64,000 bases of DNA, taken from the NCBI GenBank assembly GCA_030656555.1, contig JAUSPN010000040.1:375-64374 (forward strand). Direction: 5' to 3'. Below are positions 1,964 through 15,451 of this stretch, in pieces. Within the stretch, counting starts at the first letter, position 1. Each line of letters opens with the position of its first letter. Both the position numbers and the translations under genes were made by a program. A model generated the notes under the pieces. That model saw nothing but the letters and a program-made list of their open reading frames with translations. It did not search any database and was not told the origin of the DNA. This DNA comes from Candidatus Desulfaltia sp. (GTDB lineage Bacteria > Desulfobacterota > Desulfobacteria > Desulfobacterales > ETH-SRB1).

Positions 1964-2137
1964 TCAATTTTCAGAAACAAAGCGGGATAAAAATTCCGCA
2001 TCCTTGGGAGACAGGTTGAATTTCAGACAGGCATCGGCTGTAAGCTGCTTTAAATCTTTTACATGCTCATGTTTACGTTTTTCTGAAATCCACTTTACCG
2101 CCTTTCTCAAATCTTCGCCTTTTGGTTGAACGCCCAT
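1964..2137 (-). CDS. 57-aa small hypothetical protein missed by the ORF track
   Basis: AAAGGAG RBS, ATG at 2137, TGA at 1964-1966; MGVQPKGEDLRKAVKWISEKRKHEHVKDLKQLTADACLKFNLSPKDAEFLSRFVSEN. Confidence 0.75.
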   Translation of the reverse strand: MGVQPKGEDLRKAVKWISEKRKHEHVKDLKQLTADACLKFNLSPKDAEFLSRFVSEN

Positions 2138-2301: not shown

Positions 2302-3762
2302 TTATATTTCCGGTTTTTTCTTATGAAAATCCGTGGCCTGCTCAAAATTATAAGCAGCCGTTAACATCTTTTTTTCTTCAAAATGCCTGCCCATCAGTTG
2401 AAGCCCGATCGGAAGGCCTGCGGATGAAAAACCGCATGGAACCGATATCCCTGGTATTCCGGCAAGGTTGGCTGAAATCGTAAATATGTCGGATAAATAC
2501 ATTGTAAGGGGATCATCGACCTTATCTCCTATTTTGAAAGCAGGGGTCGGCGCCACAGGAGACAGTATCAGGTCGCATGATTTAAATACATTTTTAAAAT
2601 CCTCCATGATCAGTGTCCGCACCTGGGAAGCCTTTTTGTAATATGCATCGTAATATCCGGCGGAAAGGGAGTATGTGCCAAGTATAATTCTTCTCTGAAC
2701 CTCTGCACCGAACCCTTTTGTTCTTGTAGATCTGTACATATCGATCAGGCTGTTTTTCTCTTTGTCTCTAAAACCATACTTTACGCCGTCGTACCTTGCA
2801 AGGTTCGAGCTTGCCTCTGAAGGGGCTATAACATAATAAACTGCAACGGCATATTTTGTGTGAGGCAATGTAATTTCAATGCATTTTGCTCCAAGAGCCT
2901 CAACCACTTTGACGGCATTTTTAATTGCGCCGGAAACCTCGGGATCGAGCCCTTTTGTCTCGTTATATTCCTTTGGAATGCCGATAGTCGTCCCGCTTAA
3001 ACCCTTATTTGAAAAGGATGTATAATCCGGCACAGCTTCAGGCACTGAAGTGGAATCTGCCGGGTCGTAACCTGCAATAACATTCATAAGCATGGCGCAA
3101 TCTAAAACATCCTTTGCAAGCGGACCGATCTGATCAAGCGAGGATGCAAAAGCAATAAGACCGAATCGTGAAACCCTTCCATACGTGGGTTTCATCCCGA
3201 CAACTCCGCAATGAGAGGCGGGCTGGCGTATCGACCCGCCGGTATCGGAACCAAGTGAGCCAAGGCACATATCGGCTGCGACTGCCGCGGCTGATCCACC
3301 GCTTGACCCACCCGGAATACAGGTTAAGTCCCATGGATTGCGGGTTATTTTCACGGCTGAATTTTCCGTGGATGATCCCATGGCAAATTCATCCATGTTT
3401 GTCTTTCCGACAATCACGGCCCCGGCCTTTTTAAGCTTTTTTATGACAAAGGCATCGTATTGGGGCGTAAAGTTATCAAGTATCCTTGATGCGCAGGTTG
3501 TGCGCAGCCCCTTTGTACAGATAAGATCCTTTACAGAAAGAGGGATCCCTGACAGAGGCAAAATATTACCTTTAGATATTTCTTTATCTGTAAGCTCAGC
3601 CTGCTTTACCGCTGTTTCAGCGTCAATTGTAATATATGCCTCTACCTTTTTCTCAACAGATTCGATCCGGTCAAGAACAGCTCTGGTCAGCTCCTGCGAA
3701 GATATATCCCTTTTCTTTAAAAGACCGCAGGCTTCATGTATTGTAAGTTCATGCAGTTTCAT
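2302..3762 (-). CDS. gatA: Asp-tRNA(Asn)/Glu-tRNA(Gln) amidotransferase subunit A
   Basis: Amidase signature [32 protein letters not shown]; start placed at ATG 3762 (MKLHEL). Confidence 0.97.
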
Positions 3763-3799
3763 ATTTTCTACCATCTACTCGGACAAGCCAGTTTTTTTT

Positions 3800-3982
3800 A
3801 TTCACCGCAGAGCCGCAGAGGACGCTGAGAAATTTATTCTTTTAAATTGTCGTGAGAGGCGACAATTTAAAAACCAACCTGTCTAATGACAATCTTAATA
3901 ATGCGTTTCTTTTTGTTTTCCGTCCTCTCAACGGAAAACAAAAAAACTCTTAATCTTTGCGTTCTCTGCGGCTCTGCGGTGA
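3800..3982. mobile_element. Gene-less palindromic element with the same ends as the GxxExxY cassette
   Basis: Inverted arms TCACCGCAGAGCCGCAGAGGACGC / GCGTTCTCTGCGGCTCTGCGGTGA, each followed inward by a hairpin with a TGAGAGG loop (3841-3871; 3910-3944 inverted). Mobility is inferred. Confidence 0.7.
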
Positions 3983-3994
3983 GATATAAATTTT

Positions 3995-4285
3995 TTACGC
4001 GTTTATCACTTTTGGAACTATAAAATTTCCGCCTTCCTTTTCAGGAGCATTTGCAAGGGCTTTATCTGCGCCAATAGATTCTTTTACCTCGTCTTCCCTG
4101 AAAGCATTGGACAGAAAAACAGCATGAGAAGTCGGGGTGATGCCCTTGGTGTCAACACTGTTTAGAGTATCGACATATTCGAGTATATCGCCTATCTGTT
4201 CCGCAAGCCTGTTAATAGAGTTTTCATCCAAATCAAGACGGGCAAGATCCGCCGTGTAAACAACTTCGTCTTTGGTTATTTTCAT
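3995..4285 (-). CDS. gatC: Amidotransferase subunit C
   Basis: MKITKDEVVYTADLARL...REDEV...NAPEKEGGNFIVPKVI; directly upstream of gatA. Confidence 0.96.
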   Translation of the reverse strand: MKITKDEVVYTADLARLDLDENSINRLAEQIGDILEYVDTLNSVDTKGITPTSHAVFLSNAFREDEVKESIGADKALANAPEKEGGNFIVPKVINA

Positions 4286-4313
4286 GATAAAATTTATCCT
4301 TTTTGCAATCATT

Positions 4314-4388
4314 AACCACTGAGATCACAGAGGACACAGAGGATTATTTATAAAAATTTTTTATTTTACCACGAAGAACACGAAGAAT
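4314..4388 (+). repeat. ACCACAGAG / ACCACGAAG-type short repeats
   Basis: AACCACTGAGATCACAGAGGACACAGAGG and TTACCACGAAGAACACGAAGAA. Confidence 0.6.
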
Positions 4389-4562
4389 AAAAATTAATCA
4401 TCGCAATTCCTGCGGATTACAATCCAATATCAAGAACGTAGCCGTCAAGCTAAAAGGATATTAACATCGACGTTCAAAAGAATTTTTACTCTGCCGCTCA
4501 ACATTCTCTTATCATAAATATTTTATTTCTTAATCTTACAACCATGCCATTAGGAGAGGGAA

Positions 4563-5189: not shown

Positions 5190-5288
5190 CTGTTATTCAC
5201 CGCAAAGCCGCAAAGGACGCTGAGATTAAGTTTTTTATTGTTTTCCGTTGAGAGGACGGAAAACAATAAGAGCTATCTGAAAAGTGGA

Positions 5289-5672
5289 TTACTCGTCTAA
5301 TTCGTTCACTATTCTTACTATGCCATCCCGCATAAGGGCTACATTGAAATTCAGGATCAAACCTAAATGAAGCCCTGACAATTTAAGATACGTCAAAAGT
5401 TGTGCCTTATGAATGGGCTCAACCTTATCGCATGACTTTAATTCAAGTATGATTTCGTCTTCAACAACTATATCCAGCCTATAGCCACAATCCAGTTTCT
5501 TGTTTTTATACATTACAGGTAAAGACTTCTGTCTTTCAAACTCCAAACCTATGAGACTCAGTTCATGACATAAGCATTCTTCATATATAGACTCCAGCAA
5601 ACCAGGGCCCAAGGTTTTATGTACCTCAATAGCAGCACCTATAATCTTACTGCTTAATTTATTGATATCCAT
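5289..5672 (-). CDS. GxxExxY protein (PD-(D/E)XK nuclease fold)
   Basis: GPGLLESIYEECL, YRLDIVVE, ILELK, QLLTYLK, GLILNF; start placed at ATG 5672 because the upstream extension runs into a repeat insert. Confidence 0.93.
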   Translation of the reverse strand: MDINKLSSKIIGAAIEVHKTLGPGLLESIYEECLCHELSLIGLEFERQKSLPVMYKNKKLDCGYRLDIVVEDEIILELKSCDKVEPIHKAQLLTYLKLSGLHLGLILNFNVALMRDGIVRIVNELDE

Positions 5673-5686
5673 CACGATCCAATCGT

Positions 5687-5805
5687 TTGAACTGAACAGC
5701 GAGCGCATTCCCCGCTGCTTGCGGCGGGGTTAGCGAGCGAATCAAAAAATTGACAGAATTCCTTACAGTCGAAGATTCCCCGCTGCTTGCGGCGGGGAGC
5801 TTCAA
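5687..5805. repeat. 119-bp insert with twin GC hairpins and TTGAA/TTCAA ends
   Basis: CCCCGCTGCTTGCGGCGGGG at 5710-5729 and again at 5778-5797. Confidence 0.8.
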
Positions 5806-5914
5806 TGCCCTGAAAGCGTTAGTTTTTTCCTTTCTGTCCTCTCAACAGAAAGGAAAATCTATCTTCCCTTTGCGTTCTCTGCGGCTCTGCGGTAAACAAT
5901 GGTATCAGGCTTAG

Positions 5915-8875: not shown

Positions 8876-10152
8876 ATGACAAATCGCAACTGTATTATTG
8901 TCTGTATAACGATATTTATGTCATTATTTCTATTTAACCTGAATGCCCACGCATTAAGCCCTGAAACCGAACTGCTTTTGAAGCTTCTTGAAAAAAAGGT
9001 GTTATAACAACAGATGAGGCAACTGCCCTGAAGCAAGAGATTGAAACCGCTGCTCCAAAAGCAACAGACAAAGAAACAATCAAGGCGGAAATCAAGCGGG
9101 AAATCACAGACGAGCTGAAAACCGATGGAGGCCCGTTAGCAGGGATTCAGGACAATTTAACCATAAGCGGGAAGGTTGAGGTTGATTACCAGTATCTTGA
9201 TCACAGGGACAGAACAAACAAAAACAGCGACGGCACGTCTGATCTTTATGCTTCGACAATCGAGCTGGGGATAGAAGCCCTGATTAATGAATCAACCAGG
9301 GCCAATATTGTTTTAAAGGCAGAGGATATCGATAAAAGCGATACCACTGCAAATAACACTGACCCGAGCGATCCTGACAAGGTATTATTCGACGAAGCAA
9401 CTATAACCATATTTAATCAGGAAAAATGCCCGTTTTATGCGGTTTTGGGAAAACGTGGCCAGCCGTTCGGAAATTTTTTCACACACACAATAAGCGACCC
9501 TGTCACAAAAAGCGCATACGAAATTGCGACAACAGGGGTTACCGTAGGATATGCGCCAGCGGATCTTTATGGCCTGGATCTTTCATTTACCCTGTACAAA
9601 GGAGAAAAGTTGATAGGTCAGGTAGCGGGGATCGGAAGCACAAGTGCCCCTGTCCGTAATACAACAAGCCATGTCGAAACCGATGATGTGGAATCATACA
9701 TAGCGAACCTGTCTTTGCAGCCTATAGAGGACCTGACAATCGGGGCTGCTTTCAACTCAGAACCGGGATATGAGAGCCGTAATAATACTGTAAATGCATT
9801 TGCGGAATATTCACTGGCCGGGTTTACCCTTGACTGCGAGTATTTTGCCGCCGTAAAGAGAGAAAAATTCTCAGATAACAAAACATACAAGGAAAAAGCA
9901 TGGGCAGCCGGGCTGGCCTATAAGATCACAGAGCCTCTTGAAATTGCGGCCAGGTATGAAACCTTTGATAATGACCGTGACACAGACTTAGACGGAGACA
10001 TCGATTACACTCTAACTGTAGGCGCAAACTATGAAATACTTGACAGCGTTACACTCATGGGTGAATATCGCAGGCTTCAGGAAAAGGCTACGGATTCATC
10101 TTATGAAAAAACAGCCAATGAATATAACCTGAGGATGGGGATAGAATTTTAA
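8876..10152 (+). pseudogene. Outer-membrane beta-barrel porin (LbtU-like), frameshifted at an A7 run
   Basis: Signal peptide from ATG 8876. One extra A at 8991-8997 gives LEKKGVITTDEA and a continuous 425-aa frame into ORF 9445-10152, which ends in the barrel-type C-terminus MGIEF. Confidence 0.8.
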
Positions 10153-12932: not shown

Positions 12933-14065
12933 AGCCTTAAAAACTCTTTTATCTTTTCTACCACATAGTCTTGCTGATCATCTGAAAGTTCGGGGTATAT
13001 TGGGATGGCAAGTGTATGTGAGGCTGCATATTCAGCTACGGGAAAGTCACCTTTTTTGTAATTCAGACATGAAAAGCATTCCTGGAGATGCAGCGGCACA
13101 GGGTAGTAAATCTCTGTTCCTATTTTCGCATCATTTAAAAACAGGCGAAGCTCATCCCTTTTTTCCTTAATACTTATTACAAACTGATTGTATATATGCC
13201 GGTTCTCCTTTTCAACCGGCAGACTTACCATATCGCCTATATCTGCATCTGCAAAAAGCTCCCTGTATCTGCTTGCATTTTCCTGGCGGGCCTTTGTCCA
13301 GTTGTCAAGGTGCGAAAGCTTTAAGGAAACAATTCCCGCCTGCAATGCATCCAGCCTGAAATTGCCGCCGATCATTTTATGATAATACTTTGGTCTTCCC
13401 CCGTGAACACGGAGTATCCGCAGTTTATCATGCAAAGCCTCGGAATTTGTGGTTACAATTCCTCCATCGCCAAAAGCTCCAAGATTTTTTGAAGGAAAAA
13501 AGGAAAAGCATCCAAAATCACCCATAGCCCCTGCCCGCATTCCATTATGTTCGGCTCCAATGGCCTGTGCTGCATCCTCAATAACAATCAGGTTATATTT
13601 TCCGGCTATCTTCAAAACGCTCTGCATGTCCGCACACTGGCCGTAAAGATGAACCGGCATTATTGCCTTAACACTGGCCCGCTCTTCCTCGTTCATATCA
13701 GCCATAGCCCTGTCAATGCATTCAGGAGAGATATTATAGGTGTCTTGATTGATATCAACAAAAACCGGAATGGCGCCTGTACGGGCTATTGCTCCGGCTG
13801 TTGCAAAAAAGGTATATGGCGTAGTTATTACCCTGTCATGATATCCGATATCAGCAGCCATAAGTGAAATAAGCAAAGCATCTGTACCTGACGAAACCCC
13901 TGTTGCATGACGCGTGCGGCAATAGCCGGCAATTTCCTTTTCAAGCGCCTCAACACGAGGCCCTAAAATAAAATACTGGCTCTCAAATATTTCTTCAACA
14001 ACCTTCAAGACATCATCTTTAATGGTTTTATACTGGCTTTTAAGATCAAGTAATGGTACTTTCAT
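12929..14065 (-). CDS. DegT/DnrJ/EryC1/StrS PLP-dependent aminotransferase
   Basis: SGTDAL, PVHLYGQ, IEDAAQA, SFFPSKNLGAFGDGG. Confidence 0.93.
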   Translation of the reverse strand: MKVPLLDLKSQYKTIKDDVLKVVEEIFESQYFILGPRVEALEKEIAGYCRTRHATGVSSGTDALLISLMAADIGYHDRVITTPYTFFATAGAIARTGAIPVFVDINQDTYNISPECIDRAMADMNEEERASVKAIMPVHLYGQCADMQSVLKIAGKYNLIVIEDAAQAIGAEHNGMRAGAMGDFGCFSFFPSKNLGAFGDGGIVTTNSEALHDKLRILRVHGGRPKYYHKMIGGNFRLDALQAGIVSLKLSHLDNWTKARQENASRYRELFADADIGDMVSLPVEKENRHIYNQFVISIKEKRDELRLFLNDAKIGTEIYYPVPLHLQECFSCLNYKKGDFPVAEYAASHTLAIPIYPELSDDQQDYVVEKIKEFLRL

Positions 14066-14077
14066 TTTAATTAAACC

Positions 14078-15451
14078 TCACTTACAGCTCATTTGCACCT
14101 GAATAATATAAAGCGGCCTGCTTTCGGGGTTGCTCACTTTAACAGTGTCCTTATCAGAAATAAGAATTGTTTCCCCTTTTTCAAAAAGCCTTGTTTGTTT
14201 ATCTGATTTAATGTTCGCGCGGCCTTTTATTATAAGCAGATTCTTTGTTGCTGACGCGTCAACTTTAATTTTCAACATTGAACCAGGATATATGATTAAT
14301 TTAGACACTGTAAAATCATCCCTTTGCTCTAATAAAGTCAAAACCCCCCAGGGATGATACAGCGTATTATGCTCGTGATATTCCTTTCTACCCTTTTCCT
14401 TGAGCTGTGCCACAATAGACTTGACATCTCTGCTGTTATCAATATTTGAAATAAATACAGAATCAGGTGTTTCAACAACCACCATATTATTAAGATGGTT
14501 GGTCGCAATCAGCCTTTCGCGCCCCATTATAAAACAGTTTTTCGTATCCTTTGCAATTACATCTCCATCAATAACATTGTTGTTTTCATCCTTTGGAAGA
14601 AAGTCATAAAGAGATTTCCATGAGCCGATATCGCTCCATCCAAAATCGGACGGCAAAACAACCCCTTTGTCGGTTTTTTCCATTATAGCGCAATCAAAAG
14701 CAATATCCGGAAGTTGTTCATATTCATCTATGGTAATGGCTTTTTCTCTGGAAACCAGATTCTTCATGCTCTTCAGAAGTTCGGGCTGAAAGCGTTTAAA
14801 CTCTTCGATGACAACAGAAGCTTTAAAAGTAAACATTCCGCTGTTCCAGTAAAAATTGCCGGACTCGATATACTTTTCTGCAAAGGATTTATCAGGCTTT
14901 TCAACAAACCTCTTTATGGTTAATGCATTGCCGAATAACTCTTCAGCTCCCTCAATATATCCATAACCTGTTTCAGGGCAATCGGGTTTAATACCATAAG
15001 TGACAATATGTCCGATGTCGGCAAGCTTTATAGCGGTTTTAATGCTCTTATGAAACTTTTTAACATCCCTGATTACATGATCTGCCGGAAAAACAGATAG
15101 TATTGCATCTGAATCGGTTTTCAGAACATTCAGCACTCCAAGAAGAATTGCCGGCCCGGTGTTTCGGCCGCATGGTTCACAGATTATTTGCCCTTTAGCC
15201 TGCATACCTGTTTCCGCCATGTGCCGCGTGATTTCGTAAAAATGTTCCTGACCACAAACAATTCTGATGTTTTCCGTATCTATAACAGAAGACAATCTTT
15301 TTACAGTACTTTGCACAAGAGAATCATTACCGATAAACTTTACAAGCTGCTTGGGATATAATTCTCTTGATACCGGCCATAAACGTGTGCCTGTTCCGCC
15401 TGCTAACAAGATAGCATATACATTTATATTGCTGCCGGTTTTATGATCCAT
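14078..15451 (-). CDS. manC: Mannose-1-phosphate guanylyltransferase with a degenerate C-terminal cupin
   Basis: LAGGTGTRLWPVSR, PKQ, EPCGRNTGPA, FVEKPD, WNSGMF, WSDIGSW; start placed at ATG 15451. Confidence 0.88.
   Translation of the reverse strand: MDHKTGSNINVYAILLAGGTGTRLWPVSRELYPKQLVKFIGNDSLVQSTVKRLSSVIDTENIRIVCGQEHFYEITRHMAETGMQAKGQIICEPCGRNTGPAILLGVLNVLKTDSDAILSVFPADHVIRDVKKFHKSIKTAIKLADIGHIVTYGIKPDCPETGYGYIEGAEELFGNALTIKRFVEKPDKSFAEKYIESGNFYWNSGMFTFKASVVIEEFKRFQPELLKSMKNLVSREKAITIDEYEQLPDIAFDCAIMEKTDKGVVLPSDFGWSDIGSWKSLYDFLPKDENNNVIDGDVIAKDTKNCFIMGRERLIATNHLNNMVVVETPDSVFISNIDNSRDVKSIVAQLKEKGRKEYHEHNTLYHPWGVLTLLEQRDDFTVSKLIIYPGSMLKIKVDASATKNLLIIKGRANIKSDKQTRLFEKGETILISDKDTVKVSNPESRPLYIIQVQMSCK

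Follow-up and report, generated by a model that had tools for sequence, protein, structure and literature searches.

A gene-less, heptamer-armed MITE-like element between gatC and gatA and its putative link to GxxExxY nucleases

In the 64,000-nucleotide stretch of a Candidatus Desulfaltia sp. genome analyzed here (the window), gatC (3995 to 4312; PF02686, 2.8e-22) and gatA (2302 to 3762), both on the minus strand and with gatC upstream in the direction of transcription, are held apart by a short sequence carrying two hairpins with different stems and the same seven-nucleotide loop. In relatives, the gatA ATG is directly adjacent to the gatC stop codon or nearly so, and in one of them (G006) it lies directly at the gatC TAA. 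The locus raises the questions of what the intervening sequence is, whether it moves, and what might read a loop that is kept while the stems around it change.

Anatomy and mobility of the element

The interval between the gatC stop and the gatA start (3792 to 3994) contains no gene, as the initial annotation of this DNA had proposed. Its left end begins with an outer AT-rich terminus on the plus strand (TTTTTTTTATT, 3792 to 3802), at which the exact element boundary is uncertain; TTTT(T/A)TATT is found 5' of CACCGC in independent copies at separate loci, and this tip is common to other A-type ends. The left arm (3803 to 3829, plus strand) consists of CAC and three heptads, CGCAGAG (3806 to 3812), CGCAGAG (3814 to 3820), and CGCTGAG (3823 to 3829), and an AT-rich linker on the same strand (AAATTTATTC, 3830 to 3839) leads from the array to hairpin A (3840 to 3872, plus strand), which has a 13-bp stem (TTTTAAATTGTCG / CGACAATTTAAAA) and the loop TGAGAGG at 3853 to 3859. 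A 37-nt noncoding core (3873 to 3909, assigned to neither strand) links the A-type and B-type inner sequences; the same core is found on contigs C6 and C89 of this genome, and other A-B copies have longer cores. The right end mirrors the left on the minus strand, with hairpin B (3910 to 3944; 14-bp stem, loop CCTCTCA at 3924 to 3930, reading TGAGAGG on the minus strand), a second AT-rich linker (ATTAAGAGTT read inward, 3945 to 3954), the mirror-image array of the right arm (3955 to 3981, reading inward CAC followed by CGCAGAG, CGCAGAG, and CGCAAAG), and an outer AT-rich terminus (AGATATAAATTTT, 3982 to 3994) that abuts the gatC stop codon (3995 to 3997).

Each end module therefore has the order of AT-rich tip and CACCGC, three CGCRRAG heptads, a linker of ~10 nt, and a hairpin of 13 to 14 bp that presents TGAGAGG between a T-rich 5' arm and an A-rich 3' arm. 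The ends are convergent with different stems, such that each hairpin folds locally and not end with end. Four hairpins had been reported initially, two here and two in a neighboring cassette, and their positions are correct to within 1 bp (the first spans 3840 to 3872 with 13 bp rather than 3841 to 3871 with 12 bp); TGAGAGG is read in all of them when moving inward from the closer terminus, and their stems are perfect and all different. The view that these are not plain terminators also holds, in that the AT-rich stems carry their T-run 5' and their A-run 3', no U-tract follows the hairpin, and a scan called no intrinsic terminator within the element on either strand.

The element has features expected of a miniature inverted-repeat transposable element (MITE), being small (~200 bp) and noncoding with 27-nt inverted heptad arms, and it shows the insertion polymorphism between relatives that is characteristic of this class, with empty and filled orthologous sites. 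The presence/absence comparison suggested at the outset shows the gatC-gatA junction to be empty in seven relatives and to hold a deleted remnant of the same element in another (G005), and conversely at least eight sites are filled in relatives and empty in the genome under study (G000). Among filled/empty pairs, one clean junction is compatible with a TAAA target-site duplication, and the others are blurred by extra variable sequence. One gene-less A-B variant is present in ~98 to 99% identical form at four non-orthologous loci (G000:C63; G006:C10, which is the same locus as G008:C59; G004:C361; and G007:C227), with host flanks that are 87 to 92% identical. Between the orthologous copies G000:C49 and G007:C174, 5 of 212 positions differ and all 5 lie outside the hairpins, and the flanking genes are ~10% different. 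Ends are also swapped between elements, as shown by G008:C59, which carries a swapped B end. The gatC-gatA copy behaves as a non-autonomous, insertable element, and the empty and filled sites support the corresponding part of the initial REPIN/MITE-like assignment; it is not a strict REPIN, and the nine Y1-transposase genes of the genome are unassociated with it.

Other repeats are found at this junction and near it. Unrelated repeats fill the gatC-gatA junction in other genomes, and in G008 and G007 the junctions hold tandem heptamers (CCTCTGC, CCTCTGT, and CTTCTGA; at least 30 units with a period of 7), arrays whose CCTCTGC-type units are the complement of GCAGAGG-type heptads and which resemble the STRR arrays of cyanobacteria. 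In the window, a different heptad element lies upstream of gatC (4312 to 4392), with CACTGAG, CACAGAG, and CACAGAG, an AT palindrome, and two direct copies of CACGAAG; G002 and G012 have elements of this type at their gatC-gatA junction. A solo CGC-type arm that has a B-type linker but lacks a hairpin (1923 to 1946, within 1915 to 1960) faces CACGAAG-type arrays ~300 bp away (2215 to 2295), with a 57-codon open reading frame between them (1964 to 2137, minus strand), and the pair may be a decayed or chimeric cassette.

A common loop on changing stems

The word TGAGAGG is not itself enriched in the window, where it occurs at 8 sites against 5.8 expected. A genome-wide search for TGAGAGG hairpins, as the initial annotation had advised, was performed over the 2.73-Mb G000 genome with a requirement for at least 6 bp of flanking complementarity, and it places 35 of 183 sites in hairpins; 33 of these have perfect 13- to 14-bp stems, and the sites outside these 35 have 0 to 3 bp. 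All 35 hairpins are preceded by a triple CGCRRAG heptad array and lie 23 to 25 nt inside it. They form 17 convergent pairs plus one single, all of them intergenic, and fall into eight stem classes. The stems within an element always differ, with the combinations A-B, A-F, C-D, E-H, and E-G.

Arms-only or one-hairpin forms also recur (G000 C89:45806-45880, G015:C7:75721, G006:C15:11199, G003:C22:184, and G004:C11:1320), with junctions in the T and A runs of the hairpins that are consistent with slippage deletions between the runs. Small hairpins, GAAGCTTCGCTTC and ATCGCTTCGCGAT, lie just inside C-type and F-type hairpins (G000 C2:7760, C46:18680, and C89:47120, and in relatives), and their complement contains GCGAAGC, which we take to be an unusually stable DNA mini-hairpin motif.

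Loop-blind searches anchored on the heptad array alone were extended to 18 further related genomes. In G000 and ten relatives there are 143 arrays with a hairpin, ~111 of which carry TGAGAGG; 16 of the 143 belong to other loop families (GRACGRA, GGAGACRA, and GGAAAYGR), and others have the one-base variants TGAGACG, TGAGAAG, TGAGATG, and TGAGGGG, which are seen in more distant genomes. The loop had been called invariant, with variability in a wider copy set named as the observation that would speak against selection on it. The loop does vary at a distance, a weak objection given that TGAGAGG is the modal, ancestral-looking state over very different and unrelated stems in several families of the phylum. 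One sister family in G000 (C64:37094-40760 and C32:27150-27850) has CGCTAAG arrays and GRACGRA-loop hairpins, with modules in direct rather than inverted order on both sides of GxxExxY genes, in a cassette-array-like arrangement.

Compensatory change in the stems, also proposed initially, is strong beneath this loop. Eleven genomes yielded 63 distinct TGAGAGG hairpins, a set in which at least 10 of 14 pairs were required and related copies inflate the counts. In this set, 94.1% of the cells are paired, compared with 67.7% after shuffling and 46 to 58% when partners are slid; both sides change in 13 of 14 stem pairs, and double-sided cells number 213 against 52.6. One loop is shared by at least 48 distinct 5' arms, and this diversity, together with the slid controls, makes the conclusion of covariation robust despite the selected set and the kinship of its members. 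The spacing is similarly constrained, with an array-to-loop distance of 23 to 25 nt in 109 of 126 distinct copies, and the loop, the stem base, and the heptads carry the most information, with little in the linker and core. Among 301 sampled genomes of the phylum, 22 from 15 genera contain the array-plus-TGAGAGG pattern, with up to ~60 copies per genome, and a reversed-pattern control gives a single match across the same 301 genomes.

It is conceivable that nothing reads the loop, and that templated repair or gene conversion, together with recent copying, keeps the palindromes perfect, with the loop shared by descent only. Many perfect stems may simply be young, since copies are 98 to 99% identical within and between congeneric genomes, and the recombination of ends between elements described above fits such a process. 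However, the loop is TGAGAGG or one base off where the linked protein is only 66 to 81% identical and the stems are wholly replaced, and the linkers and core drift while the loop and spacing do not. We therefore regard an element without a reader as improbable.

An RNA role is a live rival because the elements lie inside operons with a biased orientation. The element would then be a structured intercistronic RNA, co-transcribed with the operon, with its loops read by an RNA-binding factor and its arrays paired into a stem of ~24 bp that is a possible RNase III substrate or exonuclease block, as in REP/BIME or the intervening sequences of 23S rRNA. All 15 G000 elements for which both flanks are known lie between co-directional genes, against a baseline of 0.77 (P = 0.02) or a gap-size-matched 0.69 (P = 0.004); 17 of 18 G000 elements keep the preferred order of their type relative to transcription, and A-B elements read B then A in 11 of 14 independent copies across genomes. 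The transcribed orientation creates no terminator, and the predicted fold is Y-shaped at -87 kcal/mol (z = -11). Counter-selection of polar insertions can, however, also explain the orientation bias, and the motif is two-fold symmetric across the ends, each strand showing TGAGAGG once and CCTCTCA once. One transcript would thus display UGAGAGG and CCUCUCA, which are equally conserved, and such symmetry is what a DNA-level process needs. There is no G-U excess on either strand (12 wobbles versus 24 A/C mismatches in 882 pairs, a comparison that is not decisive), the element has no match in Rfam 15 (the sole match, a chance-level StyR-3 at E = 0.61, is elsewhere in the region), and the loop tracks the clade of a nuclease, as described below. 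An RNA function appears unlikely as the main explanation, although it is the foremost of the rivals.

It is also conceivable that the TGAGAGG and CCTCTCA loops of one element kiss, joining its ends, such that the need for complementarity fixes the loop. Loop complementarity is perfect in every G000 element, and one junction atop the array stem gives rise to both hairpins in the predicted Y-shaped fold, but such complementarity is trivial for inverted copies of one motif. Nor is it maintained elsewhere, as three G144 elements combine a TGAGAGG end with a TGAGGGG end (C12:34997/35081, C23:274154/274237, and the C31:24033/24592 cassette). The GRACGRA sister family, moreover, has its modules in direct order. 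Kissing of the loops is quite improbable as the reason for their conservation.

Loop type and the GxxExxY nuclease

A candidate autonomous partner lies nearby in the window, in a cassette (5195 to 5894, minus strand) with a GxxExxY nuclease gene between hairpin-bearing arms. The gene (5289 to 5669, minus strand) codes for 126 amino acids and its product matches only PF13366 (PDDEXK_3; 1.2e-44) and TIGR04256 (GxxExxY; 2.9e-46). The cassette has the same two end modules as the gene-less copy with other stems, hairpin G (5235 to 5269; 14 bp, loop TGAGAGG at 5249 to 5255) and hairpin E' (5825 to 5857; 13 bp, loop at 5838 to 5844 on the minus strand). This is the single full GxxExxY gene between TGAGAGG hairpins in G000, and a gene lying between such hairpins is a GxxExxY gene in every case found. 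The nuclease gene is flanked by hairpins on both sides in the window and in homologous loci of G015, G006, G236, G071, G144, G325, and G297. Inside the cassette and upstream of the gene, a GC-rich hairpin, CCCCGCTGCTTGCGGCGGGG, is present twice (5703 to 5722 and 5769 to 5790), with a T-G wobble on the strand antisense to the gene.

The gene-less A-B copy is not a deletion derivative of this particular cassette, with which it has only the arrays, the spacing and hairpin geometry, and the loop in common, and in the genomes sampled the A-B lineage never encloses a gene. Those common features are nonetheless the pattern expected if they are the ones needed in trans. A deletion series that retains gene fragments (G000 C89:45192-45530, G000 C32:12585-12795, G004:C238, and G002:C175) provides a link between the full and gene-less forms.

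Mobilization by a Y1 (HUH) transposase, with GxxExxY as cargo of a true REPIN or IS200-type system, has to be weighed here. HUH enzymes typically act on subterminal hairpins with a conserved loop, and G000 encodes nine Y1_Tnp (PF01797) matches, at loci that include C6:40161, C99:56461, C42, C43, C63:149776, C68, and C79. But no array or TGAGAGG hairpin lies within 700 bp of any Y1 gene, GxxExxY is the only gene ever found between the hairpins, and the end hairpins are on opposite strands, unlike the one-strand arrangement of IS200/IS605. Movement by a Y1 enzyme is highly improbable.

The association between loop and nuclease extends beyond this genome. In a protein tree of 48 GxxExxY loci from relatives, with T-rich-5'-arm hairpins at 17 of the loci, the exact TGAGAGG loop goes with the clade of the window's nuclease gene, and GGAGACGR, GRACGRA, GAYRT, and CGGAC are each tied to one nuclease clade. 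Looser TGAG-type loops (TGAGAGC, TGAGAAGG, and TGAGGGG) are found beside a second clade at ~52% identity, so that this label needs three changes on the tree. Overall, loop type requires seven changes, compared with 16.5 for shuffled labels, and this value was reached in 0 of 200 shuffles. A gene-anchored search shows that TGAGAGG-type loops flank all homologues of the window nuclease at 66 to 81% identity (in G236, G325, G071, G144, G241, and G297, representing four families), and that their stems bear no relation to those of G000. We note that the gene is inherited along with its flanks, so that the agreement between loop and clade reflects co-evolution as a unit and linkage alone could produce it.

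Co-occurrence of the hairpins with their cognate gene is mixed, with several hairpin-rich draft genomes lacking the gene. No GxxExxY match was found in the draft metagenome-assembled genomes G007, G008, and G003, despite intact hairpins, and among drafts of the same kind G238, with ~60 hairpin copies, has a best homologue at 38% and G297, also with ~60 copies, only a fragment. The absence of the nuclease is not secure in such assemblies, which repeats tend to break.

Taken together, we assign a probability of about 0.55 to the reading that the sequence at 3792 to 3994 belongs to the heptamer-armed GxxExxY cassette family as a MITE-like, non-autonomous member, with a hairpin that most likely serves in DNA recognition or cleavage. 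The hairpin probably acts at the DNA level, and we infer that the reader of its loop is a trans-acting protein. Such a protein would recognize the features common to all lineages, namely the heptads, the fixed spacing, a hairpin of any stem, and the TGAGAGG loop, and it would most likely be the cassette's own nuclease. Recognition would probably take place once single-stranded or supercoiled DNA has extruded the hairpin, and a cut at or near the 5' stem-loop junction would probably start copying, excision, or recombination of the element, with gene-less copies either mobilized in trans or persisting as relics. To our knowledge, a PD-(D/E)XK nuclease alone is not known as a transposase.

Breaks are concentrated at this junction of 5' arm and loop, the exact site of 8 of ~30 truncations or insertions, but the hot spot could stem from host hairpin processing and not from the element's nuclease. 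A GC-rich palindrome, CGYGCAGCGCAGGC...GCGCCGCGTG, in 28-nt and 58-nt forms, is inserted between the 5' arm and TGAGAGG (T|TGAGAGG) in three hairpins of two types, and once inside a CACAGAG heptad (CACA|GAG); its sites are G006:C27 ~14042-14122, G004:C44 ~1909-1989, G004:C122 ~9414-9494, and G000 C89:57634. One possibility is a nested mini-element with insertion sites 5' of GAG. The loop insert beginning CGCGCAGCGCAGGC was considered as an insertion sequence and rejected, as it is this 28- or 58-nt palindrome.

Relation to known systems and significance

The closest published systems are Ssn/NTS (PMC11893778) and REP/RAYT. Ssn nucleases cleave single-stranded DNA at hairpin repeats that also frame them (PMC11893778), and the present elements resemble them in three respects: a hairpin-forming repeat lies on either side of a small nuclease gene, many gene-less repeat copies lie around the genome, and repeat variants go with nuclease variants (PMC11893778). 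However, the nuclease described here is of the PD-(D/E)XK type (PF13366) and Ssn is GIY-YIG, and the elements fall outside the Ssn systems because the two nucleases belong to different superfamilies. The repeats differ too, with three heptads and a free-stem, fixed-loop hairpin here in place of the one conserved palindrome of Ssn.

As in REP/REPIN-RAYT systems, the repeats are extragenic, palindromic, arranged in inverted doublets, present in tens of copies and mostly inside operons, with a single associated gene flanked by its own repeats. In contrast, that gene is not a Y1/HUH gene here, the termini are CACCGC with no conserved GTAG head, and the stem is free and the loop fixed, whereas REP stems are conserved within a family. 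The missing GTAG head and the nine Y1 genes of G000 that are unassociated with the repeats exclude them from REP/RAYT. The IS200/IS605 ends differ in that the loop motif is inverted between the ends here and no Y1 gene is associated.

MITEs are similar in being small and noncoding with terminal inverted repeats, in their presence or absence at a given site among relatives, and in the series of internal deletions from gene-bearing copies. Unlike for typical MITEs, the putative autonomous partner encodes no known transposase, and no clear target-site duplication was found beyond the one possible TAAA.

The origins of circular Rep-encoding single-stranded DNA viruses and geminiviruses have iterons beside a stem-loop in which the stem varies with compensation and the invariant loop is the site of action. 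The short direct repeats beside a compensating-stem, fixed-loop hairpin are alike, a likeness that we treat as a lead only; there is no Rep/HUH gene here, and the module lies at both ends of a chromosomal insert and is not an origin. The open reading frame-bearing intervening sequences of 23S rRNA similarly have a small orphan gene or nothing within long inverted arms that form an RNase III-type transcript stem, but the elements described here occupy mRNA operon junctions, have a different cargo family, and carry additional subterminal hairpins.

GxxExxY proteins (PF13366 / TIGR04256) are a very large family for which we know of no function, and a search of the open literature returned no description of repeats framing GxxExxY genes. 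A broader possibility, which we advance only tentatively, is that GxxExxY PD-(D/E)XK proteins are structure- and sequence-specific hairpin nucleases whose site of both recognition and cleavage is the lineage-specific loop ~24 nt from the triple heptads on an extruded DNA hairpin, and that they drive mobile or self-copying elements without an HUH or DDE enzyme; TGAGAGG, GRACGRA, and GGAGACGR would then be separate specificities within a single enzyme family.

Because the loop travels with one GxxExxY lineage, it offers a testable DNA target for the nuclease. The candidate substrate is defined, a ~60-nt oligonucleotide with three heptads, a 10-nt linker, and an arbitrary-stem hairpin with the loop TGAGAGG, and GRACGRA and GGAGACGR are natural specificity variants paired with sister nucleases. 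Even if the nuclease does not read these features, the elements matter for annotation, as they split operons (gatCAB), break assemblies, and yield spurious open reading frames. If it does, this would account for a class of intergenic repeats that is widespread both within and outside Desulfobacterota, programmable hairpin-cutting reagents could follow, and GxxExxY cassettes would represent a third nuclease-plus-hairpin-repeat system beside REP/RAYT and Ssn/NTS.
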